A stretch of 64,000 nucleotides of DNA from an uncultured Alphaproteobacteria bacterium (GTDB taxonomy: Bacteria; Pseudomonadota; Alphaproteobacteria; HIMB59; GCA-002718135): positions 3,652 to 67,651 of the forward strand of contig CACKTS010000002.1 of assembly GCA_902603095.1 (NCBI GenBank), written 5' to 3'. Position 1 is the stretch's first letter. Each line of letters starts with the position of its first letter. The notes under the pieces were generated by a model that was not told the DNA's origin, made no database searches, and saw nothing but the letters and a program-made list of their open reading frames with translations. This document shows positions 13,987-37,555 of the stretch, piece by piece. The translations under genes were made by a program, and so were the position numbers.

Positions 13987-14012
13987 TTATAAATTAAAAC
14001 AAAAGGAAACAA

Positions 14013-14392: not shown

Positions 14393-14456
14393 TAAGAATA
14401 TTTTTATAATATTTAATTGAATTCACACCTAAAACACTTTATCACAATTTTTCAAT

Positions 14457-14532: not shown

Positions 14533-14612
14533 CTTTTTATATTAGATAATCAATTATAAATATTTTAGTAAAAAAATAGTATAATAAAAGTATTTCTAAA
14601 TTTTTGATTATA

Positions 14613-18666: not shown

Positions 18667-20137
18667 GTTCTGTTAAATTTTTTATAGTTTTTTTCCAAGT
18701 AATTATTTCTTTTTGTATTATTTTTATTGAAATTTTTGGTTTCTTTTCTTTGTTTTTTTTCCAAAATTTTTTAACTTCGTTAATATTTTTAATTAAACCA
18801 GCATTAAGTGCTGCTAAATAAGCAACACCAAGTGATGTAGTTTCTATATTTTGTGGTTTTATTATTTTTACTTGAGTTATGTTAGATAAGCTTTGGAGAA
18901 AATTATCATTGCTTATCATTCCACCATCAACCTTTATTTCCGTAATCTTAGTTTTTGCATCTTTCTCCATTGATTCTACTAAATCTAATGTTTGAAAAGC
19001 AAGACTGTCTAATGTGGCTTTTATAATATCTGCTTGTGAAGTATTCCTAGTTAATCCAAAAATTGCACCTCTTGTATTTGGTTTCCAATGAGGAGCACCA
19101 AGTCCAGTTAATGCTGGTACTACTATAACTTTTTCATTTTTATTAGCTTTCGAGTAAATTTTATCAGTTTCTTTAGAGTCTTTAAAAAATAACATTTTAT
19201 CCCTAAGCCACTGAATTGCAGATCCTGCTACAAATATACTACCCTCATAACAAAACATTTTTTTTCCGTTAATTTTAAAAGCTACAGTTGTTAATAGTTT
19301 ATTATTAGAAAGTTTAAATTTTTCACCAATATTCATTAACATGAAGCATCCAGTTCCATAAGTGCTTTTTGATTGACCAGTTCTAAAACATGCTTGACCA
19401 ATAGTGGCGGCTTGTTGATCTCCAGCCATTCCACCTATTGTAATATTGCCACCAAATAATTTTGTTGTTCCAAAATGATATGAATTTTCTTTTACTTGAG
19501 GTAATAAACTTTTATTAATACCAAATAATTTTAATAGATCGTCTGACCATTTTTCTTTTTTCGGGTCATAAATCATAGTTCTTGATGCGTTTGTAATATC
19601 TGTAAAATGGGATCTTCCATTAGTTAATTTCCATAATAGCCATGTATCTATTGTCCCAAATAGAATGTTTTTTATTTGGCCTATATTTTTTTTTGGAATA
19701 TTATTAAGTATCCAGTTTATTTTAGTTGCTGAAAAGTAAGGGTCTAGCACTAGACCAGTTATTTTTTGTATCATCCTATCTTTTTTATTCGATTTAAGTT
19801 TGTCACAATAATTTGCCGTTCTTCTATCTTGCCATACAATAGCTTTATAGATTGGTTTTCCTGTTTTCTTATTCCACAATACTGTAGTTTCTCTTTGATT
19901 GGTAATACCAATAGAAATAATCTTCGATGGTTTGAGTTTATTTCTTTTTATAATTAAATTTATTAATTTTTTTACATCAAGCCAAATTTCTTCAGCATTA
20001 TGTTCTACCCAACCATCTTGAGGAAAATATTGTTTAAATTCTTTTTGAGCAATATCTTTTATTATAAATTTTTCGTCATATAACACAACTCTTGAACTCG
20101 TAGTTCCTTGATCAATAGAAAGAATAAATTTTTTCAT
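18656..20137 (-). CDS. glpK: glycerol kinase
   Basis: 493 aa. MKKFILSIDQGTTSSR..., ...GITNQRETTVLW..., ...VDGGMISN... (FGGY kinase family). Confidence 0.95.
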   Translation of the reverse strand: MKKFILSIDQGTTSSRVVLYDEKFIIKDIAQKEFKQYFPQDGWVEHNAEEIWLDVKKLINLIIKRNKLKPSKIISIGITNQRETTVLWNKKTGKPIYKAIVWQDRRTANYCDKLKSNKKDRMIQKITGLVLDPYFSATKINWILNNIPKKNIGQIKNILFGTIDTWLLWKLTNGRSHFTDITNASRTMIYDPKKEKWSDDLLKLFGINKSLLPQVKENSYHFGTTKLFGGNITIGGMAGDQQAATIGQACFRTGQSKSTYGTGCFMLMNIGEKFKLSNNKLLTTVAFKINGKKMFCYEGSIFVAGSAIQWLRDKMLFFKDSKETDKIYSKANKNEKVIVVPALTGLGAPHWKPNTRGAIFGLTRNTSQADIIKATLDSLAFQTLDLVESMEKDAKTKITEIKVDGGMISNDNFLQSLSNITQVKIIKPQNIETTSLGVAYLAALNAGLIKNINEVKKFWKKNKEKKPKISIKIIQKEIITWKKTIKNLTELNS

Positions 20138-20139
20138 TA

Positions 20140-22080
20140 TTATATATCAATTTGTTTAGTAAAATTTGCATTCTCTTGAATGAATTTAAATCTATATTCT
20201 GCCTTTTTTCCCATTAGAGATTCAAATAAATTTTCTGTTTCTTTCAATTCTTTTTTTCCTAAATTTATATTAACATTTAATAATTTTCTATTTTCTGGAT
20301 CCATTGTTGTTGATTTTAGTTGATTGGCAGGCATTTCTCCAAGTCCTTTATAACGACTTAAGGTGGGACTTATATTTTTTCCAAACTCTTTTTTTATAAT
20401 TTTATCTTTTTCTTCTTCATCGTATGCATAAAAATTTTTATCTTTATATTGTATTTTGAAAAGAGGAGGCATTGCCAAAAATAACCTATTATTATCAATT
20501 ATAGGTCTCATATATTTGTAAATGAAAGTTATTAGCAAGGTTGCAATATGTGATCCATCTACATCTGCATCAGTCATTAATATAATTTTTTCATATCGCA
20601 ATTTTGATAATTCAAAATTTTTGCCAATACCGCATCCAAGTGAATGAATAAGGTTTTGAATTTCATTATTATCTGCAATTTTCGATAAACTTACACTAAA
20701 AACATTTAATATTTTACCTCTTAAAGGAAGTATTGCTTGTAATTCTCTATTACGAGCTTGTTTTGCAGATCCTCCTGCACTGTCGCCCTCGACTATAAAT
20801 AATTCAGTGCCTTGAATATTTTTACTAGAGCAGTCAACTAATTTTCCAGGAAGTTTATTCCTTTCTTTAAATGATTTTCTCTCCAATTCTTTTATTTTAG
20901 TTAAATCTGTTCTTAAAAGTGATCTTTCGATTAGAGTTTCAATAAGAGTTTTAGAAATTTTTTTATTTGAATTCAACCACAATAAAAATTCATTTTGAAT
21001 TAATAATTCAAGTTGTTTTTGAAGTTTAGGCATAATAATTCTTTTCTTAGTTTGACCTTCAAAGCTTGGTTCGTTGATAAAAATTGAAATTACTATGTCT
21101 GAATAATCTAATAGATCATTAATATTTATATTTGATACTTTAGATACTTGGTTTTTTTTACCATATAATTTTAATGCTTTTAAGATTCCATTCTTAAAAC
21201 CACTTTCATGAGAACCTCCATCGGGCGTGCTTATTGTATTACAAAATGAAATTAATGAAGATTTTTCATTCTGATTAAAACTTACAAATATTTCACATTT
21301 TTCACTTTCATTAATATTTGTCTTTATTGAAAACTTTTTCTCAAATAATTTAGATATATTTTTATTTTTTATATCTAAAAAATCCCCAATTCCATTTTTA
21401 AAATGAAATTTTTCAAATTGTGGAGTATTGTCTTTTACTAGTTCTTTATCAATTTTAAATTCAATAGTTGTTTCTGATACTAGAACAGCTTTCATCATTA
21501 TAAAATCATATAATTTTTTTGGAGAAAATTGTATTGTTTCAAAAATAGTCTCATCTGGAATAAAACTTATTTCAGTACCTTTTTCATTTTTTTTACATTT
21601 TTCTATTTTAATTTTAGTTTTTGCTTTTCCTTTAGAATATAATTGTGAATACTTTTTACTATTTTTATATACAGTTACTTGTAAAGAAGAGCTAAGTGCA
21701 TTTACGACTGAAATCCCTACACCGTGCAACCCACCTGAAGTTTTATAAGAATTACTATCAAATTTTCCTCCAGCATGAAGAGTAGAAAGAACAATTTCTA
21801 ATGCTCTTTTATTTTTAAATTTTGGGTGAAAATCTATTGGAATACCTCTCCCATTATCTTTAATTTTTATGGAACTGTCCTTTTTGTAATGGAAAAATAC
21901 TTTAGATGCATGACCTGCTACTACTTCATCTATGCTGTTGTCCAATACTTCATTAACTAAGTGATGCAAACCTTGCTCATTAGTACTACCTATGTACATA
22001 CCTGGGCGCTTTCTTACTGGATCCAAACCCTCTAAAACTTCAATGTTTTTAGCTGTGTATGATGATTTTTTTTTAGACAT
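20140..22080 (-). CDS. parE: DNA topoisomerase IV subunit B
   Basis: GHKL ATPase (..EVLEGLDPVRKRPGMYIG.., HHLVNEVLDNSIDE) and TOPRIM (ELFIVEGDSAGGSAKQARNR, LMTDADVDGSHI). About 646 aa from ATG 22080 (the track starts at TTG 22095). The size fits ParE rather than GyrB. Confidence 0.85.
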   Translation of the reverse strand: MSKKKSSYTAKNIEVLEGLDPVRKRPGMYIGSTNEQGLHHLVNEVLDNSIDEVVAGHASKVFFHYKKDSSIKIKDNGRGIPIDFHPKFKNKRALEIVLSTLHAGGKFDSNSYKTSGGLHGVGISVVNALSSSLQVTVYKNSKKYSQLYSKGKAKTKIKIEKCKKNEKGTEISFIPDETIFETIQFSPKKLYDFIMMKAVLVSETTIEFKIDKELVKDNTPQFEKFHFKNGIGDFLDIKNKNISKLFEKKFSIKTNINESEKCEIFVSFNQNEKSSLISFCNTISTPDGGSHESGFKNGILKALKLYGKKNQVSKVSNININDLLDYSDIVISIFINEPSFEGQTKKRIIMPKLQKQLELLIQNEFLLWLNSNKKISKTLIETLIERSLLRTDLTKIKELERKSFKERNKLPGKLVDCSSKNIQGTELFIVEGDSAGGSAKQARNRELQAILPLRGKILNVFSVSLSKIADNNEIQNLIHSLGCGIGKNFELSKLRYEKIILMTDADVDGSHIATLLITFIYKYMRPIIDNNRLFLAMPPLFKIQYKDKNFYAYDEEEKDKIIKKEFGKNISPTLSRYKGLGEMPANQLKSTTMDPENRKLLNVNINLGKKELKETENLFESLMGKKAEYRFKFIQENANFTKQIDI

Positions 22081-22115
22081 GACTTTTTTTACCAAAAGTA
22101 TCAGAAGAATAACAT

Positions 22116-22146
22116 AAAAAAACCGCCTTTAAATAAGGCGGTTTTT
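22116..22146 (-). terminator. rho-independent terminator downstream of glnA
   Basis: GC-containing hairpin ccgcctt(22123-22129)/aaggcgg(22135-22141) with a 5-nt loop. It is flanked by A7 on the plus strand (a U-run on the minus strand) and by T5. It lies 21 nt past the glnA stop. Confidence 0.7.
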
Positions 22147-22166
22147 AAAAAATATTTTACAAGAAA

Positions 22167-23600
22167 TTAAACATCATAATAAAGATTAAATTCATGGGGA
22201 TGTGGTCTTAGATCCATTGGACTTACTTCATTTTCTCTTTTGTAAGCAATATAAGTTTCTATGTTATCTTTAGTAAATACATCACCTTTTAACAAATATT
22301 TATGATCTTTCTCTAATGCATCAAGAGATTCAGCAAGTGAACCAGGCGTAGAAGGGATTTTTGCAAGAACACTTTCAGGAGCTTCATAAATATTAATGTC
22401 TGTTGGTTTTCCTGGATTTATTTTATTTTTAACTCCATCTAGTCCTGCCATTAATATTGCTGAAAAAGCTAAATAAGGGTTTGATGAAGGGTCAGGACAT
22501 CTAAATTCAATTCTTTTAGCTTTTGGACTAGCAGTGTAATTATTTGGTATTCTCACTGAAGCAGTTCTGTTAGCAGCAGAATAAGCAATATTTACAGGTG
22601 CTTCAAATCCAGGTACCAATCGTTTATATGAATTTGTTGTAGGTGCGCAAAATGCCAATAAAGAAGGTGCATGTTTAAGTATCCCTCCAATATAATGTAA
22701 TGCAAAATCACTTAAATCTGCATAGTTACCTTTTTTATACATTAGTGTTTTATTTTTTTTCCAGATACTAGAATGAACATGCATGCCTGATCCATTATCT
22801 TCAAAAAGTGGTTTTGGCATAAATGTTGCAGTAAGACCATGAAGTTTAGCAACATTTTTAACAACATATTTATATCTCAATAAATCATCAGCCATTAACA
22901 AAAGTGGTGAGAATTCTAAATCAATCTCACATTGTCCACCTGTTGCAACTTCATGGTGAGAAGCTTCAACATTAATACCAATATCTTCCATTGTTAAAAC
23001 CATTTCAGTTCTTACATCTTGCAAACTATCAGATGGAGGTAATGGGAAGTAACCTCCTTTATGTCTTGGTTTATGACCTAAATTCGGGTTTTCATCTTTT
23101 CCTGTGTTCCATGCTCCTTCAGCAGAGTCTACTTCATGAAAAGCAAAATTAGAACCTGAATCATATTTAACATCATTAAATACAAAAAACTCAGCTTCAG
23201 GACCAAAATATGCTGTATCACCCATACCAGAAGATTTAAGATATTTTTCTGCTTTTTTTGCAATATATCTAGGATCTCTCGCATAACTTTCATAAGTAAT
23301 TGGATCAACAACATCACAAGTAAATGCAATTGTTTTTTCAGAGTAAAAAGGATCAATATATCCAGTAGTTACATCAGGAACCATTGCCATATCACTATTC
23401 TCTATTGATTGAAAACCTCTTACGGATGATCCGTCAAAACCAACACCATCTTTAAATAAATCTTCAGTTAAATACTTAACTGGAATAGAAATATGATGAG
23501 TCGATCCAGGCAAGTCTGTGAAACGAAGATCAACCATTTTAATTTCTTCATTTTTAATTTTTTTTAATAACTCTTTTGGAGTTTTACAGTTATATTTCAT
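22167..23600 (-). CDS. glnA: glutamine synthetase type I
   Basis: About 477 aa from ATG 23600 ([14 protein letters not shown]...), which has a GAGGT RBS 7 nt upstream. The track start at 23636 is an upstream extension. Motifs: ...GSGMHVHSS..., ...[13 protein letters not shown]..., adenylylation-loop NIYEAP. Confidence 0.95.
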
Positions 23601-23689
23601 AATTACCTCATGTCTAACATTGACTAATCTCACCAATTGAAATTAGTTTATTACTTATTCATGCTCTAGTTATGAAATCTGCTTTTAAT

Positions 23690-23737
23690 GCGTTCCTTCA
23701 GCTGAAGCTTACTTCCGACCCAAAAGGGTTGAACGAT
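23690..23737 (-). promoter_or_regulatory. glutamine riboswitch aptamer (glnA RNA motif), glnA-proximal copy
   Basis: Minus-strand RNA AUCGUUCA-ACCC-UUUU-GGGU-CGGAAGUA-AGCU-UC-AGCU-GAAGGAACGC. P1 is CGUUC/GAACG. The conserved CGGAAGUA and GAAGGAACGC cores match the glnA RNA motif as I recall it. Confidence 0.75.
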
Positions 23738-23752
23738 TTATAACTTTTGCAT

Positions 23753-23808
23753 GCGTTCCTTCGGTCAAAGACCTACTTCCGATTTAAGAAAATCTTAAAT
23801 TGAACGAT
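23753..23808 (-). promoter_or_regulatory. glutamine riboswitch aptamer (glnA RNA motif), glnA-distal copy
   Basis: Minus-strand RNA AUCGUUCA-AUUUAAG-AUUUU-CUUAAAU-CGGAAGUA-GGUC-UUU-GACC-GAAGGAACGC. It has the same 26 core nucleotides as the proximal copy. Both hairpins differ in sequence but remain fully paired. Confidence 0.75.
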
Positions 23809-23849
23809 TAAAAGCCTTTTATTAATTTTAATAAAAAAGTAAAGTTAAT

Positions 23850-24191
23850 TTAGACAGCATCACTGTCTTTTTCACCAGTTCTTATTCTTATAACTTGATC
23901 TATATTGTAAATGAATATCTTACCATCGCCAATTTTTCCTGAATATGCAGCATTTTTTATTGCATCTGTTACTTTTTCAGCGTCCTCATCTTCGACTATT
24001 ACTTCTAATTTCATTTTAACAAGAAATTCATCATCATATTCTTGATTATTTTCAATGCCACCGCTAGATCCTCTTTGTCTTCCAAAACCCTTAACATCAG
24101 TAACTGTCATACCTGATATACCAACCTCATGTAAGGCTTCTTTTACAACAGATAACTTAAATGGTTTTATTATTGCTTCAATTTTTTTCAT
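23850..24191 (-). CDS. glnB: nitrogen regulatory protein P-II
   Basis: 113 aa. MKKIEAIIKPFKL..., GFGRQ..., B-loop SGKIGDGKIF, C-terminal IRIRTGE. The T-loop apex is divergent (RGSSGGIENNQEYDDEF) but a Tyr is retained at the position equivalent to Tyr51. Confidence 0.9.
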   Translation of the reverse strand: MKKIEAIIKPFKLSVVKEALHEVGISGMTVTDVKGFGRQRGSSGGIENNQEYDDEFLVKMKLEVIVEDEDAEKVTDAIKNAAYSGKIGDGKIFIYNIDQVIRIRTGEKDSDAV

Positions 24192-25345
24192 ATAAATGAA
24201 AGTCTATAAATTGCTTCTTCTAAATTTTCCATTGAATTCGCATAACTTAATCTTATAAAATTTTCAGCTGTTTCTCCAAAACTTTTACCTGGAACTAGAG
24301 CAACTCCTTTTTCTTCAAGCGCTATATCAGAAAACCTCTGTCCATTTAGTCCAGATTTTGAAACATTAGGAAAAGCATAAAATGCACCTCCTGGTTTAAA
24401 GCATGTCATGTTATTAAGCTTATTTAATTCAAAATAAATAAATTCTTTTCTTTTTTGAAATTCTTTTTTTATTTTTTCAACTTCATTTTTAGGACCTTTC
24501 AATGCTTCAATTCCAGCATATTGAGAAATTGAATTTGGACATGAATGATCATTTACACAAAGTTTATTGGCATGCTCATACAACTTTTTAGGCCAAACAC
24601 TCCAGCCAAGTCTCCAACCTGTCATGCAAAATGTTTTGCTCCAACCTTCTAAAACTATTAATCTTTCTTTTAATATTTCATAATTTAAAAGAGACGGCAT
24701 TTTTTCATCTTCAAATATAATTTTACTATATATTTCATCAGATAAGACAAATACCTCAGGATACTTTTCTAACATTTTAACAATTTTTTCTATTTTAAAT
24801 TGATTCATAAATGCACCTGTTGGGTTATTAGGATTATTAATAATAATTAAGCTAGTTTTATTTGTTATTAGTTGCTCTAACTTTTCAATATTAATTTCAA
24901 AATTATCCTCTTCAGAAAGTTTTAGAGGAATACCTCTAGCGCCACTAAAATTGATCATCGAACGATAAATTGGAAATCCTGGATCAGGATAAATTATTTC
25001 ATTCTCCTCACCTCCTAAAATAAGACATGAATAAAAAATGGTTGGCTTACCTCCTGGTGTGATTAAAATTTGATCAGGGCTAACATTAACTTTATAATCT
25101 TTATTAATTTTTTCAGATACCGCTTCTCGTAAAGGTAGGATCCCATTTGACGGTGTGTATCCATGATGCCCATCTTTAATGGCTTTTATTGCAGCTTCTT
25201 GTATATTTGATGGAGTTGGAAAATCTGGTTGTCCTATACCTAGATTGATAATATCCCTACCTTCTGAAATAAGTTTTGTTGCTTTAGCAAGTATCGCAAA
25301 AGCTGATTCTGTCTCTAAATTAATTATTTTTTTTGAAACTTTCAT
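24188..25345 (-). CDS. pyridoxal-phosphate-dependent aminotransferase class I/II (aspartate aminotransferase-like)
   Basis: 385 aa. ...INLGIGQPDFPTP..., ...NNPNNPTG..., PLP-lysine context WSKTFCMTGWRLGW. ATGA overlap with glnB. Confidence 0.85.
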   Translation of the reverse strand: MKVSKKIINLETESAFAILAKATKLISEGRDIINLGIGQPDFPTPSNIQEAAIKAIKDGHHGYTPSNGILPLREAVSEKINKDYKVNVSPDQILITPGGKPTIFYSCLILGGEENEIIYPDPGFPIYRSMINFSGARGIPLKLSEEDNFEINIEKLEQLITNKTSLIIINNPNNPTGAFMNQFKIEKIVKMLEKYPEVFVLSDEIYSKIIFEDEKMPSLLNYEILKERLIVLEGWSKTFCMTGWRLGWSVWPKKLYEHANKLCVNDHSCPNSISQYAGIEALKGPKNEVEKIKKEFQKRKEFIYFELNKLNNMTCFKPGGAFYAFPNVSKSGLNGQRFSDIALEEKGVALVPGKSFGETAENFIRLSYANSMENLEEAIYRLSFI

Positions 25346-25400
25346 AATTTTGGTATAGCCAATAAATTTTATTAATAAAACTTAATTTTATCAATAAAAT

Positions 25401-25478
25401 GGCGAACGTAGCTCAGTTGGTTAGAGCGCGGCCTTGTGGTGGCCGATGTCGTGGGTTCGAATCCCATCGTTCGCCCCA
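25401..25478 (+). tRNA. tRNA-His (anticodon GUG) with genomically encoded G-1, discriminator C73 and CCA
   Basis: G(-1)+GCGAACG acceptor pairing with CGUUCGC. D arm GCUC-AGUUGGUUA-GAGC. Anticodon arm CGGCC-UUGUGGU-GGCCG. T arm GUGGG-UUCGAAU-CCCAU. Ends C-CCA. Confidence 0.95.
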
Positions 25479-25553
25479 AATTTTAAAAAAACCATTTTTA
25501 TTTAAATTCACTATTGTTTTTTATTGTAATCATCATAAAAGCGGCTGAATAAT

Positions 25554-25638
25554 GGGCCGATGGTGGAATTGGTAGACACGCTAGATTTAGGTTCTAGTGC
25601 CGCGAGGTGTGAAGGTTCAAGTCCTTTTCGGCCTACCA
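25554..25638 (+). tRNA. tRNA-Leu (anticodon UAG), long variable arm, CCA encoded
   Basis: Acceptor GGGCCGA/UCGGCCU (G1:U72). Anticodon arm CUAGA-UUUAGGU-UCUAG. Variable arm GCCGCGAGGUGU. T arm GAAGG-UUCAAGU-CCUUU. Ends ACCA. Confidence 0.95.
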
Positions 25639-25656
25639 TTTTAATGAGGTAATTTG

Positions 25657-27007
25657 ATGTCAATAAAAGAAATAAAATCAGGAACTTTATATAAAGAGTA
25701 TTCATTAGAAATTCCATATGAGGAAATAAATCAAATTATTGAATCTAAAATAAATGAAATTTTACCAACAGTATCAATGCCTGGTTTTAGAAAAGGAAAG
25801 GCCCCAGCCAATATTGTTAGAAAAAAATATGAAAGCTCAGTAATTTCTGAAGCTATTGAAAATTTAGTACAAACTAAAACAAAAGATTTACTTGATAAAA
25901 AAAATCTTAAACCATTTACTCAACCCAAAATAGATTTAAAAAAATATGAAAAAAATCAACCAATAGAGGTTGAAATAAAAATAGATCTTGAGCCAGAAAT
26001 TATACTTAAAGATTTTAAAAAAATTAATGTTAATAAATATGAAATTAAATTAGATAAATCAATTATAGAAAAAAATTATAAAGAATTTCTTAATTCTCAA
26101 AAACAATATTCAAAAATAGTAAATAACAGAGAAATTAAAATTTCTGATAAAGTATTAATTAATCTTTCTTCTAATGATGAGATTACTCCAGATTTTTTAA
26201 AATTACAAAAAAAACCTTCCAATAATAATTGATTCTGAGTATCAAATATTACCTGATATAGGCACTAAACTAAAAGAAAAAAAACTAAAAAAAGGTGACA
26301 AAACAAATATTAATTTGGATGTATCAAAATCATTAAAACTAAACGAAAAAAAAATGATAAATTTCGAAATAGAAGTTATTGAAATTGAAGAGTCAGTTCC
26401 TTTCGTTGTTGATAAAGAATTTTTAGAAAAAAACAGTTTAAAAAATGAAGAAGAATTGAAAAAAAATCTAGAAATTAATCTTAAATCTCAATTTGAAAAT
26501 GGATTAAAACAAATAGAAAAAAAAGAGCTCATGGATACATTGGATCTAGAGCATCAATTTGATTTACCTCAAGGTATTATAGATCAAGAATTTAATGATA
26601 TTTGGCATAGACTGGAGCATGCAAAAAAAGATGGAAAGTTAGATGATGATGATAAAAAACTAAATGATGATCAGCTAAAAAAAAGATATGAAAAAATTTC
26701 AAAAAGAAGAGTAAAGTTGGCGATCCTGCTACAGCACATTGCCAAAGAAAATAAAATATCTGTTGAAGAAAAAGAAATATCTAATGGAATGATGGCTTAT
26801 GCTTCTCAATATCCTGGTCAAGAGAAGCAAATAATTGAATATTTCAAAAATAATCCATCTTCTATAGAAACTATAAGAGGTCCAATTTTAGAAGAAAAAG
26901 TCATAGAAACTGTCATTTCAGGGGCAAAAGTAACTAAAAAAATAGTAAGTAAAGATGAATATGAAAAACTTGAGAAAAAAACTTTCGACGTTAAAAAGGG
27001 AAAATAA
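25657..27007 (+). pseudogene. tig: trigger factor, reading frame broken by a 1-nt homopolymer indel (possibly a sequencing artefact)
   Basis: Track ORFs 25654-26232 (frame 1; ...MPGFRKGKAPANIVRKKY...) and 26315-27007 (frame 2) are the N- and C-terminal parts of one ~450-aa trigger factor. Frame 2 is already open from 26201 and reads ...KKNLPIIIDSEYQILPDIGTKLKEKKLKKGD... The switch maps to the A8 run at 26207-26214. Confidence 0.85.
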
Positions 27008-27618
27008 TGAAAGATATTGAAAAAATTACTAATAATTTGATACCTATGGTTGTTGAACAATCTTCTCGTGGGGAAAGAGCATATGATATTTATTCACGAT
27101 TGCTGAAAGAAAGAATAATTTTTCTCACTGGACCAATTGATGATAACACTGCAAGTCTAATTTGTGCTCAACTATTATTTTTAGAGTCAGAAAATCCAAA
27201 AAAAGAAATTTCTTTTTATATCAATTCACCAGGTGGTATCGTTTGGTCAGGACTGGCCATTTATGATACTATGCAATACATTTCATCAGAAATTATGACA
27301 ATATGTATAGGGCAAGCTGCTTCTGCTGGTTCTTTGTTACTTACTGCAGGTTCAAAAGACATGAGATTCTCATTGCCTAATTCAAGAATTATGGTTCATC
27401 AACCAAGTGGAGGGTATCAAGGTCAAGTCACTGATATTGAAATTCAAACCACTGAAATAAAAAAAACAAAAGAAAAGTTAAATAAAATTTATGCTAAACA
27501 TACAGACAATAAAATTGAAGATGTTGAAAAAATTATGGAGAGAGATAAATATTTTTCTCCAGAAGAAGCAATAAAGTTTGGTTTGATTGATAAAATTGTG
27601 GAGAATAGAAAAAATTAA
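27007..27618 (+). CDS. clpP: ATP-dependent Clp protease proteolytic subunit
   Basis: 203 aa. ...[12 protein letters not shown]..., catalytic Ser context [11 protein letters not shown], ...MVHQPSGG... Confidence 0.95.
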
Positions 27619-28091
27619 TGACCAAGAAAGAGGAAAAAGAAACTTTATTTTGTTCCTTTTGCGGAAAAAGTCAAAAGGAAGTAAAAAAATTAATAGCAGG
27701 TCCAACTGTTTTTGTATGTGATGAGTGTGTTGAACTATGTATGGACATTATAAAAGAAGATACAAAAAATAGTAAATCAAAATTAAAAAAAGATACTCCA
27801 AAACCAAGAGAAATAAAAAAATTTTTGGATGATTTTGTTATTGGTCAAAATAATGCAAAAAAAATATTATCTGTAGCAGTATATAATCATTATAAAAGAT
27901 TAGCTCATTCTAGTTTTGAAGATGTTGAAATCTCTAAATCTAATATTTTATTAGTTGGTCCAACTGGCACAGGTAAGACTTTATTAGCTCAAACTTTAGC
28001 AAAAATTCTAGATGTCCCATTTACAGTTGCTGATGCTACTAGTTTAACCGAAGCAGGATATGTTGTAAAATTCAAATTAATCAAGTTATAA
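27618..28091 (+). pseudogene. clpX: clpX 5' fragment only (zinc-binding domain and Walker A), truncated at about nt 28065
   Basis: 157-aa [33 protein letters not shown], then ...[39 protein letters not shown], then unrelated VKFKLIKL*. Full-length ClpX is about 420 aa and continues ...EAGYVGEDVENI... Confidence 0.85.
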
Positions 28092-28538
28092 AAATTTGCT
28101 TTTGAAATAATTATTAAAACACCAATAATTGATAAAATTATACCAAAAAAATTGCATAAAGTAAGTTTGTGTTTTAAAAATTAACCAAGAAAAAAGAATT
28201 ATTAATAATGGAGTAATAGATGCCATTATTGAAGAGTTAATAACCATCGAAGTTTGGAGAGATAAATAAGTAAAAGAATTAAAAATAGTTACTCCAAGAA
28301 TTGAAGTAATTAAAATAAATGGAAGATTTTTTTTATATTTTTCAAAATCATCAACTATTTTTTTATATGTAAATGGAAGTAATAATAAAAAAGCTAAAGA
28401 CCATCTTAAAAAACTTAATTTAAATGGTGTTAGTTCATAAAGAGATGCAATTTTACCTGTAAAAAAATTACCTGACCAAAATAAAGATGAGGCTACTAAT
28501 AATATAAAAGCAAAATAAATACTTTTGGTATTAACCAT
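28069..28538 (-). pseudogene. EamA/DMT-family transporter gene, 5' half only, also carrying a 1-nt frameshift
   Basis: The track ORF (150 aa) is EamA-like up to ...IILFSWLIFK. A second frame then continues ...[35 protein letters not shown], and similarity stops where the antisense of clpX begins. The family is normally about 290 aa with 10 TM helices. Confidence 0.7.
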
Positions 28539-29403
28539 CTACTAATGTCATTAAAGATGAAGTATCATATCTTGATCCTCCATTTTTTTGAATCTCTTCA
28601 TAATATTTATCAATTAGTTTAGTAATTGGTAATGATGCACCATTCTTTTTAGCTTCATCAAAACAAATGGATAGGTCTTTTCGCATCCAATCTACCGCAA
28701 ATCCAAATTCAAATTTACCTTCTAGCATAGTTTTATAGCGATTTTCCATCTGCCATGATTGAGCGGCTCCCTTAGAGATAACTTGAAGAACTTTTTCCAT
28801 ATCTAAATTAGCTTTTTTACCAAAAGCCAATGCTTCAGATAACCCTTGAACAAGACCAGCTATACAAATTTGATTAATCATTTTTGCCATTTGACCTGAA
28901 CCTGCTGAACCTATTAATTCTATAGTTTTTCCATATGAACTCATAATAGGTTTTGCTAAGTTGAATTGATCTTCATCACCGCCAACCATTATGGAAAGAA
29001 TTCCTTTTTCCGCACCAGCCTGACCTCCAGAAACTGGCGCATCAAGAAAATGAAAATTATTATCTTTAGATATTTGATAATATTTTTTCGCAATATTTGA
29101 TGAGGCTGTTGTATGATCAATAATTATTGAATTATCTTTTATATTTTTAATAATTCCATCATCTCCTTCCATTACAGAAACTAAATCTTCATCTCTTCCA
29201 ACACAAATAAAAACTATATCCGCTTTTGAAACAGCTGTTCCAGGTGTTAATTGAGATGAACCAGAAAATTCTTTGACCCATTTTTCAGCAACAGTTGAAG
29301 TTCTGTTATATACAGTAGTGTTAAAATTATTTTTTATTAAATGTCCTGCCATATTATAACCCATCACACCAAGACCGATAAAAGTTACATTTTTTATTTC
29401 CAT
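28531..29403 (-). CDS. NAD(P)-dependent beta-hydroxyacid dehydrogenase (3-hydroxyisobutyrate dehydrogenase family)
   Basis: 290 aa. Rossmann motif VTFIGLGVMGYNMAGHL, then ...FLDAPVSGGQAGAEKG... Confidence 0.85.
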   Translation of the reverse strand: MEIKNVTFIGLGVMGYNMAGHLIKNNFNTTVYNRTSTVAEKWVKEFSGSSQLTPGTAVSKADIVFICVGRDEDLVSVMEGDDGIIKNIKDNSIIIDHTTASSNIAKKYYQISKDNNFHFLDAPVSGGQAGAEKGILSIMVGGDEDQFNLAKPIMSSYGKTIELIGSAGSGQMAKMINQICIAGLVQGLSEALAFGKKANLDMEKVLQVISKGAAQSWQMENRYKTMLEGKFEFGFAVDWMRKDLSICFDEAKKNGASLPITKLIDKYYEEIQKNGGSRYDTSSLMTLVDG

Positions 29404-30198
29404 TTATTCATCCTCCATCAAACTCAAAATTTTATAGTTAAGATTCTTAGAATTACTAACAACAAGATTATTTGAATGCTCATAAAATTTATATCCTAAT
29501 TTATCAAAATGACAATCATGTCCTCCAGCTTGACGGACAATAAAAACACCTGGAATATGGTCCCAGGGATATAATCTTGATAACAGCGCAAAATTTCTAA
29601 GTCCTAAAGCTATATCTAAATATTCACACCCTATCGATCCATAAGAATCTATTTTTTCAAAAAAATTTTTAATTTCTTTTATTTTTATTTTTTTAGTTTC
29701 ACTCCAATATTTAGAACTTACTGAACCAATTGCATTTTCAATTTGTGTTTCTTTTTTTAAAATTAATTTCTTATCATTAATAAAAGTACCGTTACTACCC
29801 GCATATATAAATTCTTCAGAAATAGGTTTATAAATAAAAGCTTGTTTTATTTTATTTTTTTTGGTTAAGCCCACCATTACTGCAAATCTTTCTTTTGAAT
29901 TAACAAAATTTTTCGTTCCATCTATAGGATCAACAGTCCAACAATAATTGTCTGATGAATAATTTTTTAATATCGAAGGATCTTTTGAAAAAGTTTCCTC
30001 TCCTATGAAATAGGTATTATTAAGTAATTTTGATAATTGTTTTTTTAATTCTAATTCAACTGCAATATCTACTTCGGTAACAATATCTAATCCATTTTTA
30101 AAAGAAATTTGATTTTCTTTTAAATTACCAAAACTTGGTATTATGATATTTTTACTTATATTGTATAATATTTCTTTTATTTGATTTTGATTTACCAC
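29404..30198 (-). CDS. inositol monophosphatase family protein
   Basis: 264 aa. ...YFIGEE..., metal-binding signature WTVDPIDGTKNF, ...WDHIPG... Confidence 0.8.
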   Translation of the reverse strand: MVNQNQIKEILYNISKNIIIPSFGNLKENQISFKNGLDIVTEVDIAVELELKKQLSKLLNNTYFIGEETFSKDPSILKNYSSDNYCWTVDPIDGTKNFVNSKERFAVMVGLTKKNKIKQAFIYKPISEEFIYAGSNGTFINDKKLILKKETQIENAIGSVSSKYWSETKKIKIKEIKNFFEKIDSYGSIGCEYLDIALGLRNFALLSRLYPWDHIPGVFIVRQAGGHDCHFDKLGYKFYEHSNNLVVSNSKNLNYKILSLMEDE

Positions 30199-30200
30199 AA

Positions 30201-31043
30201 CTATTTAATAATAGATTTATATAAATTTAAAGCCAAAGTTTTTGTTATAATTCCTATTTTTCCATTATTGATTTTATATTTATCAACCTGAATTATTGGA
30301 GTAATAAGGCTACCTGAACTAGTAATAAAAACTTCATCAGCATTATATAATTCTTTTTTTGTAAATTTTTTCTCTTTTAAAATTAATCCATTTGAATAAA
30401 TTATTTTTATTAATACTGTTCTCGTTACTCCTTTTAAAATTTCTTTATTAGCAGGATGAGTAATAATTTTATTTTTTTTTATTACCCATACATTGGAATG
30501 TGCAGCTTCCGTAATTGTATTACCTTTAAAAAAAATTGCTTCATAAGCACCTTTATTACTTGCATGTGTGGCAGCCAATATATTTGCCAAAAGAGAAGTT
30601 GTTTTAATATCAGGTCTGGCCCACCTGATATCCGGATAAGTAATTGCTTTAAATCCTTTATAATTTTTATTTGGTAAATTAAAATTCTTATTATTGGTGT
30701 AAATAATTATATTGGGCTTTAGATTTTTATTATAAGCATGTTCCCGATTTTGTACTCCTCTAGTTATTTGAAGATAAATAGTTCCATTATTTAAATTGTT
30801 TTTTTTAATCAAATTTATAAAAATTCTATGCAATTTTTTCTTATCTAATTTAAAATTAAAATCTAATTCTTTAGTGGAATATTTTAATCTTCTAATATGA
30901 AAATTATAATCGAGTATTTTTTTTTGAATTACTTTAATAACTTCATAAACACTATCTGAAAATTGAAAACCTCTATCTTCAATATGAATATTTGCATCTT
31001 TATAATTTACATATTTATTATTTAAATAGACATACCTTGACAT
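30201..31043 (-). CDS. class IV aminotransferase (D-amino-acid/branched-chain aminotransferase family)
   Basis: 280 aa. ...IEDRGFQFSDSVYEVI..., ...TSLLANILA..., ...ILKGVTR... Confidence 0.8.
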   Translation of the reverse strand: MSRYVYLNNKYVNYKDANIHIEDRGFQFSDSVYEVIKVIQKKILDYNFHIRRLKYSTKELDFNFKLDKKKLHRIFINLIKKNNLNNGTIYLQITRGVQNREHAYNKNLKPNIIIYTNNKNFNLPNKNYKGFKAITYPDIRWARPDIKTTSLLANILAATHASNKGAYEAIFFKGNTITEAAHSNVWVIKKNKIITHPANKEILKGVTRTVLIKIIYSNGLILKEKKFTKKELYNADEVFITSSGSLITPIIQVDKYKINNGKIGIITKTLALNLYKSIIK

Positions 31044-31046
31044 ATG

Positions 31047-32411
31047 CTAATAAAATGAGAGTAATGACTCTAATTTCTTAATATAATTTGTTTCAGCAAA
31101 AAAAACAACGTCATCATTTTCTTTAAAAACTGTTGTGCTATTAGGAATTATAATTTTATCATTTCTAAAAATTGAAGCAATTCTTATTCCTTTAGGTAAA
31201 CTTAAATCTTTTAAGTTTTTATTACACAAAGCAGTCTGTTTCTTTATTACAGCTTCAATAACCTCACCAAAACCATCGCCAATTGAATAATCACTCATGA
31301 TTCCCCCTCCTCTAACCTTTTCCAAAATTTTTGAAATAGTTATAAGTTTAGGATCTATAGTAATATCTATACCTATATTAGATAACAAAGAGGTGTATGA
31401 GCTATTGTTAATTAATGTTATACACTGATCAGCACCTGCTCTCTTTGCTAACAATGAAGCAAGTATATTAACCTCATCATCTTCAGTTACAGCCACAAAA
31501 TAATCTGCATCGGAAATATTAACTTCATCCAAAATTTGATTATCAAGACCATCTCCATTTGTTACAGTTACATTTTTTAAATTAGATGCTAAAAATTCAG
31601 ATCTATCTTTACTATTTTCAATTAATTCTGTTGATATTCCAGAGTCATATTGTTCAATTAATTCTGATAATGAAAAACCAATATTACCTCCTCCAATAAT
31701 TACTATTTTCTTTGCTTGAATTTCTTTGTGACCAAATTCCATTAGGACGTCTTTTAAATTCTGTGTCTCCACAACCATATAAATTAAATCATTAGCTTCA
31801 ATTTTAGTATAAGAATTAACAATAAATTTTTTGTCTCCTCTAAAAATAAATAAAATATTAGCAAGATAGTCTGGAAATTTAGCTGAAAGTTCTCTTACAG
31901 TTAGGCCTAAATGATCACATATTGGTTCACATTTAAAACCTATTAATTTTAATTTTTTTTCAGATAATTCAACCATATCAATTGTACCAGGTGATATAAT
32001 TCTTCTATGAAAGGCGCTTGCTACTTCTTGTTCAGGAGATATTATTGCATCAATTGGTAAATTGTTTTTTGTATATAAATTTTGCCATTCACCTTTTAAA
32101 TAATCTTGCTGTCTTATACGTGCTATTTTTTTTGGTATATCAAATAAAGAATGTCCAATTTGACATGCAATCATATTTGTTTCGTCACTTTTTGTAACTG
32201 CGATTAAAATCTCACAATCATTTGCACCAGCATTTAATAAAACACTTGGTAAGCTTGGTTGACCTGAAATTACTTTAACATCAAGATTTTCAGAAATTTT
32301 ATTTAATTTTGCTGAAGGCTCATCAACGACTGTAACTTCAAAATTTTCTTTAGATAATTTATCAGCTATGCTGTATCCTACATCTCCTGATCCACAAATT
32401 ATAGTTTTCAT
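31047..32411 (-). CDS. trkA: Trk system potassium uptake protein TrkA (two RCK/NAD-binding repeats)
   Basis: 454 aa. MKTIICGSGDVGYSIA... and a second Rossmann motif IVIIGGGNIGFSL. Confidence 0.9.
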   Translation of the reverse strand: MKTIICGSGDVGYSIADKLSKENFEVTVVDEPSAKLNKISENLDVKVISGQPSLPSVLLNAGANDCEILIAVTKSDETNMIACQIGHSLFDIPKKIARIRQQDYLKGEWQNLYTKNNLPIDAIISPEQEVASAFHRRIISPGTIDMVELSEKKLKLIGFKCEPICDHLGLTVRELSAKFPDYLANILFIFRGDKKFIVNSYTKIEANDLIYMVVETQNLKDVLMEFGHKEIQAKKIVIIGGGNIGFSLSELIEQYDSGISTELIENSKDRSEFLASNLKNVTVTNGDGLDNQILDEVNISDADYFVAVTEDDEVNILASLLAKRAGADQCITLINNSSYTSLLSNIGIDITIDPKLITISKILEKVRGGGIMSDYSIGDGFGEVIEAVIKKQTALCNKNLKDLSLPKGIRIASIFRNDKIIIPNSTTVFKENDDVVFFAETNYIKKLESLLSFY

Positions 32412-32417
32412 TTTATT

Positions 32418-33752
32418 TTAATTAACCGAAATATTTAATGATTTTAGTTTTCGATAAAGTGCTGTTCTTTCCATACCAGTAAATTCTGATACTTTAGATA
32501 TATTACCACTAAACCTTTTTATTTGCGATAATAAATATTCTTTTTCAAACTCTAGTCTAGCTTCTTTGAGAGATAAGTCAAAATTATTAGAAGTATTTTG
32601 TTCTTTGTTGTAATCGCCCATTTCTAAAGCTAAATTATCAACATCAAGTATCAAATCTTTGGAAGAAGATTGATTAAGTATGACAGTTTTTTCTACATAA
32701 TTTACTAATTGAGCTATATTTCCAGGCCAATCAAACATTTCTAATTTTGAAATAGCTGATTTAGAAAAAGTAAGTTTGATATTTCTGTTATTAAATTTTA
32801 AAATATAATAATTTAGTATAGGTAATATATCAGCTACTCTTTCAGATAAACTTGGGCAAATTAAATGATCTACCTTTATTCTTTCATATAATCTTTTCAT
32901 AAAATTACCATTCAATATCTCATCCTCTATTTTTTTTTCAGAAATAGATATAATTTTTTGATCAAGTGTTACTTTAGAATTTTGAAAAAAGTCTTTGGAT
33001 TCAATAAAGAACAAAAACTGTTTTTGAAATTTAAGTGGTATTTGATCAATATTAAGAAGAATTAAAGTATTATTATTTGACCTTACAAAAATATTTTCAT
33101 TCAAATTTTTTATATTTTCAGAAAAAAGAACCTCTAGATTTTTTTCATTTAAATTTGAAAAATCAATTAAAATTGGTATTTTTTCTTTATACTTTGAATT
33201 CTTATGAATATTATTAGCTATTAATTTTTTTCCAACACCAAATGGCCCTTCTATCAATAACCTTGATTTAGATTTAGAAAATTCAATAATTTTTTTATTT
33301 ACTTGAGTATTAAAAACAGAGCTTCCTACTAAATTTTCATCATCCGAAATTAATTCTTTTAAATCTTTATTTTCATTATGAAGTTTAGAGCTTTCAATAG
33401 CTCGTTTAGCTAAAATGATTAATTTATCACTATTAAAAGGTTTTTCTAAAAAATCATAAGCTCCATTTTTTATTGCACTTACAGCTAAATCAACTGTTCC
33501 ATGACCACTAATTATTATTATAGGTATTTCTTTTTTAATTTTTTTGAATTCTTTTAAAAGTTCAATTCCATCTAGTTTACTATTTGAAAGCCAAACATCT
33601 AAAATAATAAGATTAGGGTTATACTTATTATAATTTGATAATGCTTCTTCTGAATTTAAAGCAGAATAAGTTAAATATTGTTCATCTTTTAATATTTCTG
33701 ATATAAGAAAACAAATATCTTTTTCATCATCAATAATTAATACTTTATACAT
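32418..33752 (-). CDS. ntrX: response regulator NtrX (receiver, degenerate AAA+ domain and Fis-type HTH)
   Basis: 444 aa. Receiver VLIIDDE...LIILDVWL...EKPF. AAA+ with GPFGVGKK but no GAFTGA. C-terminal HTH ISKVSEFTGMERTALYRKLK. Overlaps the ntrY stop by 8 nt. Confidence 0.8.
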   Translation of the reverse strand: MYKVLIIDDEKDICFLISEILKDEQYLTYSALNSEEALSNYNKYNPNLIILDVWLSNSKLDGIELLKEFKKIKKEIPIIIISGHGTVDLAVSAIKNGAYDFLEKPFNSDKLIILAKRAIESSKLHNENKDLKELISDDENLVGSSVFNTQVNKKIIEFSKSKSRLLIEGPFGVGKKLIANNIHKNSKYKEKIPILIDFSNLNEKNLEVLFSENIKNLNENIFVRSNNNTLILLNIDQIPLKFQKQFLFFIESKDFFQNSKVTLDQKIISISEKKIEDEILNGNFMKRLYERIKVDHLICPSLSERVADILPILNYYILKFNNRNIKLTFSKSAISKLEMFDWPGNIAQLVNYVEKTVILNQSSSKDLILDVDNLALEMGDYNKEQNTSNNFDLSLKEARLEFEKEYLLSQIKRFSGNISKVSEFTGMERTALYRKLKSLNISVN

Positions 33753-35892
33753 TTAAATTTTCAAATATTATTATGCTTGTTGTTCCGGCCATTTGTTTGT
33801 TTTTTTCTATTCTAATTTTTCCATTATGATCTTCAATAATTTTTTTAACTATTGAGAGTCCTAGCCCTGTTCCTTTATTTTTTGTAGTAAAATATGGCTC
33901 AAAAATTTTACTAGCAGTTTCTTTTGATATACCAACCCCATTATCTACAAACTCTATAAAAATCTTGTTATTTTCAATTCTTAAACTAACACTAATTGAT
34001 GGATTTGGAATTTTTTCAACAGATTCAACAGCATTTTTAATTAAATTATTAAAACTTTGAGTAAGTTGGAATTTATCAAATTGAAAATATATCTCTTTAT
34101 CTTCTAAATCAATTTTAAATTTAATATTTTTATGTGAATTAGAAAATAAAATATATGACTCATGTAAACATTTAGATAGATTATCTAGTTTGATTTCAGG
34201 TTCAGGCATTCTTGCAAAAGATGAAAATTCATCTATCAGTTTGCCGATATCATCTACTTGTCTTGATATTGTGTTTGTTAAAGTTTTAATATCATCATTT
34301 TCAAAATCATTATTTTTATATTTTTTTTCAATTCTTTCTGCTGATAATTTTATAGGTGTTAAAGGATTTTTAACTTCATGTGCTATTTTTCTTGCAATAT
34401 CAGACCAAGCTGCATGTTTTTCTGCTAAAATAAATGATGTGGTGTCATCTATTGCAACAACATAACCATTTATTTTCTCTTCTTTAAACTCTTTAATTAT
34501 CCTAACATTAAAATTTCTAAGATCATCATTAACCAATATTTCTACCTGAAAATTTTCAAGTATTTTTTTTGATTTTTTAAAGCTATTAAATATATTTTGC
34601 CACTCGGGAAAAATTATTAAAAAACTTTCATTTTCCTTTAACTTTTTTGCACCTTTAAAAAGTTTTTTTGCAGTTTGATTATAAAAAATAATATTAAAAT
34701 TATTATCTAATGAGATAACCCCTATTGTTAATAAGCTTAAAATAGCTTCGATAAATAATCTTTTTTCTTCATCTTCATTGCTCTTCTTAATTAGTTGATT
34801 TTGCTGGTTTTCAATTTCTACTATCATCTTGTTATAAGATGAAATTAATACTTTTATTTCTTCAAATTGATCTATTTCAGATACTTTAGCTTCAAAATTC
34901 CCTTTAGAGATTTCATTTGCTGATTCAATTAAATTAGATATGGGCTTTGACAGTTTTCTAGCTAAATTAAAACCAATTAAAATTGCTATTAAAATAAAAC
35001 CTATAGAAAAAAGAACAAATATCATCGAGTAAGTTATTTGTATGCCTGCACTTTCACTTTCTTTAGTGGTATATATTTTATAAGCATCTTTAGTTGCAGA
35101 AATATGATCCCAAATATTAGTATTTAATTCTCTATTAACTTGCATAAAGACATCATTTAAAAAATTAATTCTTTTATAAGCTGAAATTGAATTTTTATTT
35201 ACTTGAAAAATAAATACTCTATTTTGATCTAAAATTTTAAATATGTCCTCTGAAGGAAATAAAAAATTTTTATTTTCTTTATCCTTAAAATTTAAATAAA
35301 TTTCTCCAGATTTGTTAAATAAATAAATATTTGAAATAGTTCTTAAATTAATAAATTCGCTCAAACCTTGATTAATGGAATTAATATTTACTTCATTGTT
35401 CTTAGAAACCTTAAATATTTCTCTAGTAATTAATTGAGTATCTGAAATTATTTCAGCTTGTATTTCATTTTCATAATCTCTTGCAACGATATTAGAATTG
35501 ACTACAACCTCTCTTACTGCTCCCCCATACCAAGTTCTAAATTCTAAATTAAAAAAAAGTGAAGTTATAATCACAAGACCTATAGCTGGACCAACTGCCA
35601 TTGCTGCAAATAAATTAACAAATTTTATATATAATTTAGACTCATCCTTCTTATTTCTTCTGTAAATAAAAATTAAAATTACTTGTCTTAAAATTAAAGC
35701 TAAAAGTAATATTACAAGGAAGACATCTGCTAATAGAAAATATTGTAATTGCAGTGGATTTTTAACTAAATTGTTATTTGGCAACATTAAATAAAAAGTG
35801 ATTGAAAAACTGAGAAGTATTAGGCTGAGTAATAGATAAAACGAAAACTTTGTTAGATATAGTTTATTTAATATTTTTGTTAAACTGATCAC
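33745..35892 (-). CDS. ntrY: sensor histidine kinase NtrY (TM, HAMP, PAS, HisKA and HATPase domains)
   Basis: 715 aa. GTG start. N-terminal TM helices. H-box IARKIAHEVKNPLTPI. ATP-lid ...NAVES..., ...DNGVGI..., ...GTGLGLSIVKKIIEDH... Confidence 0.8.
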   Translation of the reverse strand: MISLTKILNKLYLTKFSFYLLLSLILLSFSITFYLMLPNNNLVKNPLQLQYFLLADVFLVILLLALILRQVILIFIYRRNKKDESKLYIKFVNLFAAMAVGPAIGLVIITSLFFNLEFRTWYGGAVREVVVNSNIVARDYENEIQAEIISDTQLITREIFKVSKNNEVNINSINQGLSEFINLRTISNIYLFNKSGEIYLNFKDKENKNFLFPSEDIFKILDQNRVFIFQVNKNSISAYKRINFLNDVFMQVNRELNTNIWDHISATKDAYKIYTTKESESAGIQITYSMIFVLFSIGFILIAILIGFNLARKLSKPISNLIESANEISKGNFEAKVSEIDQFEEIKVLISSYNKMIVEIENQQNQLIKKSNEDEEKRLFIEAILSLLTIGVISLDNNFNIIFYNQTAKKLFKGAKKLKENESFLIIFPEWQNIFNSFKKSKKILENFQVEILVNDDLRNFNVRIIKEFKEEKINGYVVAIDDTTSFILAEKHAAWSDIARKIAHEVKNPLTPIKLSAERIEKKYKNNDFENDDIKTLTNTISRQVDDIGKLIDEFSSFARMPEPEIKLDNLSKCLHESYILFSNSHKNIKFKIDLEDKEIYFQFDKFQLTQSFNNLIKNAVESVEKIPNPSISVSLRIENNKIFIEFVDNGVGISKETASKIFEPYFTTKNKGTGLGLSIVKKIIEDHNGKIRIEKNKQMAGTTSIIIFENLNV

Positions 35893-35957
35893 TATGGTAG
35901 ACTTTATTTATTATTTTTATGCTATAGTAAACTTATATAATATAATTTACCCTATAA

Positions 35958-37098
35958 ATGAAAAAGATAAAAAATGCACTTGTTATCCTAGCTGGAGGTA
36001 CAGGCAAAAGATTTGGTAAAAATTTACCAAAGCAATTTAATGAAATTAATGGTGAAAATCTAATACATTTTTTTTTAAAACGTGTAGACACAAGGAATTT
36101 CGATAAAATTTTGATTGTTCTTAAGCATTCTCATTTTAAATATATTAAAAATCTAAAATTTGATTTTCCTTCAGTAGATTTTCTTTTTACTAATGCAGGA
36201 AAAAGTAGACAAATTTCTTCTTTAAATGCTCTAAAAAAATTGAAACCATTTGAACCAAGAAATATTTTAATTCATGATGCAGCAAGACCATTCTGTACAA
36301 ATAATTTGATATTAAAAATACTTAAACAGCTAAAAAAAAATTATTCTGCAATACCATATGTTTTGAATCCTGATAAAAAAGTTTTAGGATACAAAGAATT
36401 TAATCAAAACTTAAAATTTGTACAAACCCCTCAAGGGTTTAAATTTAAAACAATTTTTGAAGCACATCATAAAAGTTTAATTAATAATGCAAAAGATGAC
36501 TCTATATTATTACCAAAAGAAAAAATAAATTTTATAAAAGGTGAAAAATTAAATTTTAAAATAACATATCCAGATGATTTTAATTACTTTAAACTATTTT
36601 TAAAACCTATATTCAAAACAGGTATTGGTTATGATATTCATCGAATTGATACTAAAACAAAAAATGGTTTGAAACTTTGTGGTATAAAAATAAATCATAG
36701 TAAGCTAATAGGTCATTCTGATGCTGATGTTGGTATACATGCAATATGTGATAGCATCTTTGGAGCACTATCTATGAAAGATATTGGATATTATTTTTCT
36801 AATAAAAATTCAAAGTGGAAAAACAAAAATTCTCTTCATTTTATAAATTTTGCAAAAGAAAAAACTTAAAGAGAAAAAATTCTTTATAGTTAATCTTGAT
36901 ATTAATATTATATGTGAAAAACCTAATATAAGTAAATATAGAAAAAAAATGATTGAAAATTTATCTTCTATATTAAAAATACCTGATAAAATTATTTCAA
37001 TTAAAGCAACTTCAAATGAAAAAATAGGCTTTATAGGAGATGGCTTGGGTATTGCCGCAGAATCAATAATCCAAATTTCAAATGAAAAACTTTACTAA
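35958..37098 (+). pseudogene. ispDF: bifunctional IspD/IspF (MEP cytidylyltransferase / MEcPP synthase), frame broken by a 1-nt homopolymer indel (probably a sequencing artefact)
   Basis: Track ORF 35958-36869 holds IspD (ILAGGTGKRFG...) and the start of IspF (GIGYDIHR...GHSDADVGIHAICDS...). ORF 36850-37098 holds the rest of IspF (...NLDINIICEKP...KATSNEKIGFIGDGLGIAAE). Removing one A from the A6 run at 36859-36864 restores ...FAKEKLKEKKFFIVNLD... Confidence 0.85.
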
Positions 37099-37555
37099 AT
37101 TCTTTCTATCAATTTTTTTTGTTGGTTATATAAATTTTGCACCTGGGACGTGGGGAAGTTTAGTATCTATTATAATTTTGTTTCCAATATTTAAATTTTC
37201 AACATTAACTATACAAATTTTAATTATTATTTTTATTTTTTTATTTTTTATATCAAATTACTTAATTAATTATTTTTCATTATTTACTAATTCACAAGAT
37301 TCTAAACATATTGTTGTTGATGAATTTTTAGGTATCTTTACCATTTTTTTATTTTATGATTTTTTATTTATCTATAATGATTTTTTTACTTTAATTTTGA
37401 TATTTTTGATTTTTAGATTATTTGATATAATAAAAATTTTTCCAGCTAACTTTATAGATAAAAAACTCAAAAATGGTTACGGTGTTATTCTTGATGATAT
37501 TGTTGCCGGGTTATATACAGTTTTAACTTTAGTAATTTTAAATGCCTTTATATAA
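37082..37555 (+). CDS. pgpA: phosphatidylglycerophosphatase A
   Basis: 157 aa. ...APGTWGSL..., ...VVDEFLG..., ...GVILDDIVAGLYT... Confidence 0.8.
   Translation: MKNFTKFFLSIFFVGYINFAPGTWGSLVSIIILFPIFKFSTLTIQILIIIFIFLFFISNYLINYFSLFTNSQDSKHIVVDEFLGIFTIFLFYDFLFIYNDFFTLILIFLIFRLFDIIKIFPANFIDKKLKNGYGVILDDIVAGLYTVLTLVILNAFI

Follow-up and report, generated by a model that had tools for sequence, protein, structure and literature searches.

Truncated clpX and EamA transporter genes fused head-on in a contig of a HIMB59-type marine alphaproteobacterium: a probable chimeric join

The 5' halves of clpX, on the plus strand, and of a gene for an EamA/DMT transporter, on the minus strand, are fused head-on at positions 28061-28065 of the window, the whole 64-kb stretch of DNA analysed here. 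Comparison with related sequences suggests, with a probability of about 0.8, that this junction is a chimeric join within the assembled contig and not a feature of the chromosome and, at much the same likelihood, that it arose through a template switch in amplification or in the preparation of the library, after which the assembler retained it. A chimera is favoured because the junction is found on one contig while both genes are intact in DNA that is 96-99% identical, and because of the 5-nt microhomology at the junction, the undecayed state of the gene remnants and the other errors that the contig contains.

Results

Structure of the junction

The earlier note on this DNA had described a truncated clpX lying head-on to a truncated EamA gene, an arrangement that open reading frames, Pfam and BLAST against relatives all confirm. 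It had placed the breakpoint near 28065-28069, a position refined here to a 5-nt overlap, TGTTG, at 28061-28065 (Table 1). Similarity to clpX is normal over 149 codons and ends at 28065, and similarity to EamA is normal over 159 codons of the minus strand and ends at 28061. In a BLAST search with positions 18000-38000 of the window, matches to 32 related clpX loci end at 28063-28065, and BLAST matches to about 60 related EamA loci end at 28061-28065, both sets being collinear with the window for up to 10 kb. To the left of the overlap the window follows the clpX parent, and to the right it follows the antisense strand of the EamA parent. A microhomology of at least 5 nt has a chance probability of 0.014, as estimated from 200,000 simulated random joins between the window and its reverse complement, 1.4% of which reached this length. 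The parents have no longer repeat in common and are unrelated beyond these 5 nt, so that no repeat able to mislead a graph assembler is present.

Table 1. Features of the junction, its parent sequences and the genes discussed in the text (positions are those of the window)
Feature	Position	Strand	Remarks
tRNA-His, tRNA-Leu		+	precede tig
tig (trigger factor)	25654-27007	+	two ORFs, split by a +1 frameshift in an A-run; Trigger_N half 25654-26232, Trigger_C half 26315-27007 (Pfam)
clpP	27007-27618	+	intact; Pfam CLP_protease 6.7e-82, full length
clpX 5' fragment, codons 1-149	27618-28065	+	C4 zinc finger, Walker A
Microhomology TGTTG	28061-28065	.	common to both parents
Spurious tail of the clpX ORF, VKFKLIKL*	28066-28091	+	antisense EamA read in the clpX frame
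EamA 5' fragment, codons 1-159	28061-28538	-	first EamA domain; Pfam EamA 1e-14
3-hydroxyisobutyrate-dehydrogenase-like gene (HIBDH)	28531-29403	-	Pfam NAD_binding_2, NAD_binding_11
ispDF	35958-37098	+	split by a +1 frameshift, A6 at 36859-36864
clpX parent			GCAGGATA[TGTTG]GAGAAGATG, read from L172 and L081
EamA antisense parent			AAATCCCC[TGTTG]TAAAATTC, read from L173-L175 and L084
Window			GCAGGATA[TGTTG]TAAAATTC; left = clpX parent, right = EamA antisense parent
clpX 3' part past the breakpoint			GEDVENIILKLLQ..., absent here
EamA 3' part past the breakpoint			GDLWMLAAVFSWG..., absent here
EamA continuation on the other strand at the breakpoint			...ACAGGGGAT

The clpX arm

With about 27% G+C the window is AT-rich, and its coding density is high. 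On the left arm, the protein encoded by clpP recurs in identical form on three Tara contigs. The open reading frame that holds the clpX fragment (27618-28091, plus strand, 157 aa) encodes the N-terminal C4 zinc-finger domain (zf-C4_ClpX, 2e-19, residues 11-47) and the Walker A motif GPTGTGKT, and it matches the AAA profile at positions 1-37 and the AAA_2 profile at positions 3-50 only (Pfam). The frame is lost after ...TEAGYV, within the GYVG pore-loop motif, and ends in VKFKLIKL*. Full-length ClpX of relatives has 420 aa, with AAA_2 and ClpB_D2-small domains, and Pfam detects neither a complete AAA+ module nor the C-terminal small domain in the window protein. Judged by this domain content, the window clpX is a gene fragment and not a functional member of the ClpX family; the 64-kb window contains no second copy of clpX.

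The tig-clpP-clpX operon had been said to run normally as far as the break, and this does not hold for tig. A tblastn comparison places a switch of frame at 26207-26211, at a run of eight A (26207-26214) where L081, L082 and L083, which are 98.7-99.4% identical, have seven. In each of these three loci tig is intact, encoding 449 aa, and is one base shorter than in the window.

Further along the left arm, two tandem glutamine riboswitch aptamers (RF01739; 23687-23737 and 23750-23808, minus strand; 66.5 and 59.9 bits) sit between glnB and the glutamine synthetase gene (22167-23636). Tandem glutamine riboswitches beside glnB and glutamine synthetase are a known arrangement. A stretch of 600 nt at 13986-14604 is without a long open reading frame; it holds long A-runs, including A13 at 14258, and its sole match in Rfam is a tRNA, tRNA-Phe at 14457-14532.

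The EamA arm

The transporter fragment has one EamA domain (residues 10-131, Pfam), whereas the full-length protein of relatives has 301 aa and two; the two-domain structure of such transporters (about 10 transmembrane helices, about 300 aa) is not found in the window fragment. Alignment to L084, L085, L088 and L113 also reveals a +1 frameshift inside the fragment, at a run of seven A on the plus strand (28145-28151) where all relatives have six, so that the called open reading frame ends at 28086 while the true frame continues past it. Once a single T is removed, 158 of the 159 residues are identical to those of L084. Counted against the full-length proteins of relatives, 271 codons are missing from clpX and 142 from EamA. 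The earlier note had given about 270 and about 130.

Upstream of EamA in the window lie HIBDH, an inositol monophosphatase (IMPase) gene and a class IV aminotransferase gene (ilvE-like). L167-L171 and L182-L191 likewise have the order IMPase-HIBDH-EamA, which shows that HIBDH is the usual upstream neighbour of EamA and that synteny with relatives is preserved along the right arm.

Both genes in related DNA

The clpX-side sample came from a scan for relatives of the ClpX N-terminus with one genome per species (80 loci), and the EamA-side sample from a transporter scan of metagenome contigs (80 loci). The closest genomes on the clpX side are HIMB59/MarineAlpha5-type alphaproteobacteria, and single-cell amplified genomes (AG-/AH- isolates) make up 27 of the best 32 genome records. 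Full-length ClpX and full-length EamA served as queries, an uninterrupted locus being one in which a single alignment extends at least 20 residues beyond the breakpoint on each side; the breakpoint is crossed in this way in 83/86 fetched clpX loci and in 83/88 fetched EamA loci.

The nearest sequences are whole at this place. On the clpX side the Tara locus L172 is 99.2% identical over 960 nt, and its ClpX (P0004) agrees with all 149 residues of the window, runs on to 420 aa and is followed by lon, while L081 (99.4%) and L082 (99.1%) continue past the breakpoint as GGAGAAGATGTT, encoding GEDV. On the EamA side the Tara loci L084 and L173-L175 (96-97% identical) continue ...NLNFTT directly into GDLWML. 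The exact truncated proteins, ClpX of 157 aa and EamA of 150 aa, are each found on one contig only, the NCBI contig of 69,891 bp that is taken to be the source; within the two 90% clusters every other member that does not run off a contig end has 420 aa (ClpX) or 301 aa (EamA). A degenerate pattern of the junction that allowed synonymous change on both sides gave 0 matches in 241 million metagenome records, which counts as weak negative evidence.

The clpX fragment differs from L164 by 11 synonymous and two non-synonymous codons, and the EamA fragment, with one T removed, differs from L084 by seven synonymous codons and one non-synonymous codon. By this comparison the remnants are without decay, and the differences have the pattern of genes under selection; a break made in a cell would accordingly have to be very recent. 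A single Tara assembly, ERZ841410, has matches of 98-99% to both the left arm (L082) and the right arm (L180), so that the two arms are plausibly from one population.

The Tara contigs L081 and L082, although from different assemblies, both stop exactly 12 nt past the breakpoint of the window, at ...GGAGAAGATGTT, their ends being at 2774 and 2528, respectively. These ends probably reflect a graph fork or a coverage gap common to both, at the start of the conserved GEDVEN block.

Normal neighbourhoods

In relatives the clpX side carries glnB, an aminotransferase gene, tRNAs, tig, clpP, clpX, lon and nuoA-F; lon had been guessed to lie 3' of clpX, and that is where it is found. The EamA side carries IMPase, HIBDH, EamA, msrB, pepC, topA, plsY, pyrB, ruvX and gatCAB. 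The 10-kb stretches downstream of the two breakpoints have no overlap with each other, and the segments joined in the window are not adjacent in related genomes, where more than 10 kb separates the two loci. The 507,675-bp contig CACNNQ010000001.1 of a relative carries EamA at about 367 kb, and glnB/clpX are found on several contigs of 250-680 kb; among the long contigs that could be read, none paired EamA with clpX.

Within the window there is no trace of the 3' part of clpX, lon or nuoA-F, nor of msrB, pepC, topA, plsY, pyrB, ruvX or gatCAB. The reciprocal junction, in which the 3' part of EamA would meet that of clpX (...AAATCCCCTGTTGGAGAAGATGTT...), was found neither in the window nor in the 201 fetched loci. 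At four-fold degenerate sites, GC skew and AT skew were compared by gene strand and by arm for a sign that the join flips the replication strand; the differences were within noise.

The neighbourhood of EamA has a small variable spot of its own: a gene for an MFS transporter (376-393 aa) lies between msrB and pepC in L173, L174 and L182-L191, and is absent from that place in L113, L167 and L168.

Other frameshifts in the contig

A third split gene, ispDF, lies further along the right arm. Its first reading frame holds IspD and positions 1-80 of the YgbB profile, and the next holds YgbB positions 82-154 (Pfam); in relatives ispDF encodes a single protein of 379 aa, and the near-identical L176 and L179 have A5 where the window has A6. 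IspF belongs to the MEP pathway and is essential where this pathway is the only isoprenoid route. A true frameshift in ispDF is unlikely, since IspF is normally essential.

The frameshifts in tig, EamA and ispDF are each one extra A on the plus strand, within an A-run; they lie from 1.9 kb before to 8.8 kb after the join, and each is missing from contigs that are 98-99% identical. All of 20 further candidate split reading frames proved to hold full-length domains. The three insertions resemble the homopolymer-indel gene splits of AT-rich marine alphaproteobacterial assemblies, one extra A in each gene. The truncation of clpX is unlike these, being a change of locus and free of any frameshift. 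Errors that are few and near the join would point to poor local coverage.

Two other accounts of the A-runs were considered and rejected. Transcriptional slippage that tolerates such runs, as in some AT-rich endosymbionts, does not agree with the in-frame run lengths of the 98-99% identical contigs, and a technology that reads homopolymers poorly in general does not agree with a window in which about 100 runs of at least eight A or T are accompanied by three detected breaks.

In L192-L201, long-read metagenome contigs of close relatives, 250-680 kb in length and marked _pilon, each of tig, clpP, clpX, glnA and the aminotransferase gene is spread over several open reading frames. To judge from these reading frames, the broken genes show heavy residual indel error in public assemblies, and with tig, clpP and clpX broken in this manner artefactual "truncated clpX" calls are common in the clade, whatever the platform.

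Discussion

A chimeric join would bring together two non-neighbouring stretches from the genome of a HIMB59-type marine alphaproteobacterium, the left one running ...glnA-glnB-aminotransferase-tRNAs-tig-clpP-clpX and the right one ...ilvE-like-IMPase-HIBDH-EamA. A growing 3' end may have halted within clpX at ...GGATATGTTG, its last five bases (TGTTG) annealing to a second template within EamA, on which extension would then have proceeded. The likely route is a template switch by phi29 polymerase during multiple displacement amplification (MDA), although PCR in library preparation could do the same, and the assembler would subsequently have followed the chimeric molecule, true coverage being presumably poor at this place. 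We infer that the source was amplified DNA because most public genomes of the clade are single-cell amplified genomes; that MDA in particular was used is an assumption.

Lasken & Stockwell 2007 characterised 475 chimeras that had arisen when a single cell was amplified by MDA; the frequency was about one per 22 kb of reads, 85% were inverted, and in 76.8% a displaced 3' end had primed on a new template across 2-21 nt of complementarity (PMC1855051). Where more than 10 kb lay between the segments, direct joins were about as frequent as inverted ones and complementarity was rarer, at about 30% of chimeras (PMC1855051). The junction in the window is like these chimeras in that it is a singleton, joins non-adjacent segments across a short overlap (5 nt, within the range of 2-21 nt), is absent from independent, unamplified environmental sequence of the same population and fits the rate. 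It is unlike the classic MDA chimera, which is inverted and joins segments less than 10 kb apart, in that more than 10 kb lies between the present segments in relatives. For the single-cell pipeline from which most public genomes of the clade come, PMC7507113, quoting Stepanauskas et al. 2017, gives a benchmark of 0.9 mis-assemblies and 1.8 indels for every 100 kb; at these rates, the single mis-join and the three indels of the 64-kb window are of the expected order of magnitude.

Three explanations had been offered in the earlier note, namely a chimera of amplification or assembly, one end of a real inversion, and a deletion compensated by a second clpX. The first is the one that the sequences favour, the inversion is without positive support, and the deletion is contradicted by synteny.

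The alternative that survives best, and which we consider improbable, is that the cell or strain sequenced had undergone a genuine inversion or translocation, which would have inactivated clpX and EamA and left its reciprocal junction outside the window. Microhomology-mediated rearrangement also occurs in living cells and has the same look. The clean fusion with its 5-nt microhomology is what illegitimate recombination in vivo would give, both arms plausibly come from the same population, and there is no second clpX within the window to contradict the loss. As in microhomology-mediated illegitimate recombination in bacteria, a short microhomology lies at a novel junction where two genes are cut mid-sequence; unlike it, there is no reciprocal junction, no second occurrence and no decay, and a conserved housekeeping gene is lost. 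The junction is confined to a single contig and is missing from the 241 million metagenome records, strains that are 96-99% identical have both genes intact, with clpX intact in 83/86 related loci, and the undecayed remnants would demand an extremely recent event. The contig moreover has demonstrable errors of sequence, one of them in the normally essential ispDF, and a mis-join, for which the quoted benchmark is 0.9 per 100 kb (PMC7507113), is a priori far commoner than a cell without ClpX. What would have to be accepted is a wild HIMB59-type cell in which a very recent microhomology-mediated inversion had destroyed clpX and the DMT transporter, and this seems unlikely. If it were true, it would mean that a streamlined marine alphaproteobacterium is able to lose ClpX, at least for a short time.

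It is far less likely that DNA from two closely related cells or strains was joined through an error of co-assembly, binning or scaffolding. The best environmental matches beside the join are 99.2-99.4% identical on the left arm, as against 96-97% on the right, as a join of two strains would predict, but matches of 98-99% occur further along the right arm, one of them in the Tara assembly that also holds the left-arm match, so that the gap in identity reflects which contigs are public. The G+C content is alike on both arms, and graph assemblers need a shared k-mer where these parents have 5 nt in common. Such a join, if it had taken place, would likewise be an artefact.

A real deletion between convergent clpX and EamA genes, compensated by a second clpX elsewhere, would give the geometry of two convergent 5' halves, but is effectively excluded by its cost of at least 20 kb, in which lon, nuoA-F, msrB, pepC, topA, plsY, pyrB, ruvX and gatCAB, several of them normally essential, would have been lost, and much of complex I with them.

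Conclusions

If the junction is a chimeric join, as we favour, its main value is that of a quality flag on the contig. Users of the contig in studies of pangenomes, gene loss or synteny would wrongly score clpX, the lon-adjacent synteny and the transporter as lost, and tig and ispDF would be miscalled as pseudogenes. Were the join real, it would offer a rare snapshot of a wild cell that had newly become devoid of ClpX, and would represent a one-off lesion and not a new system.
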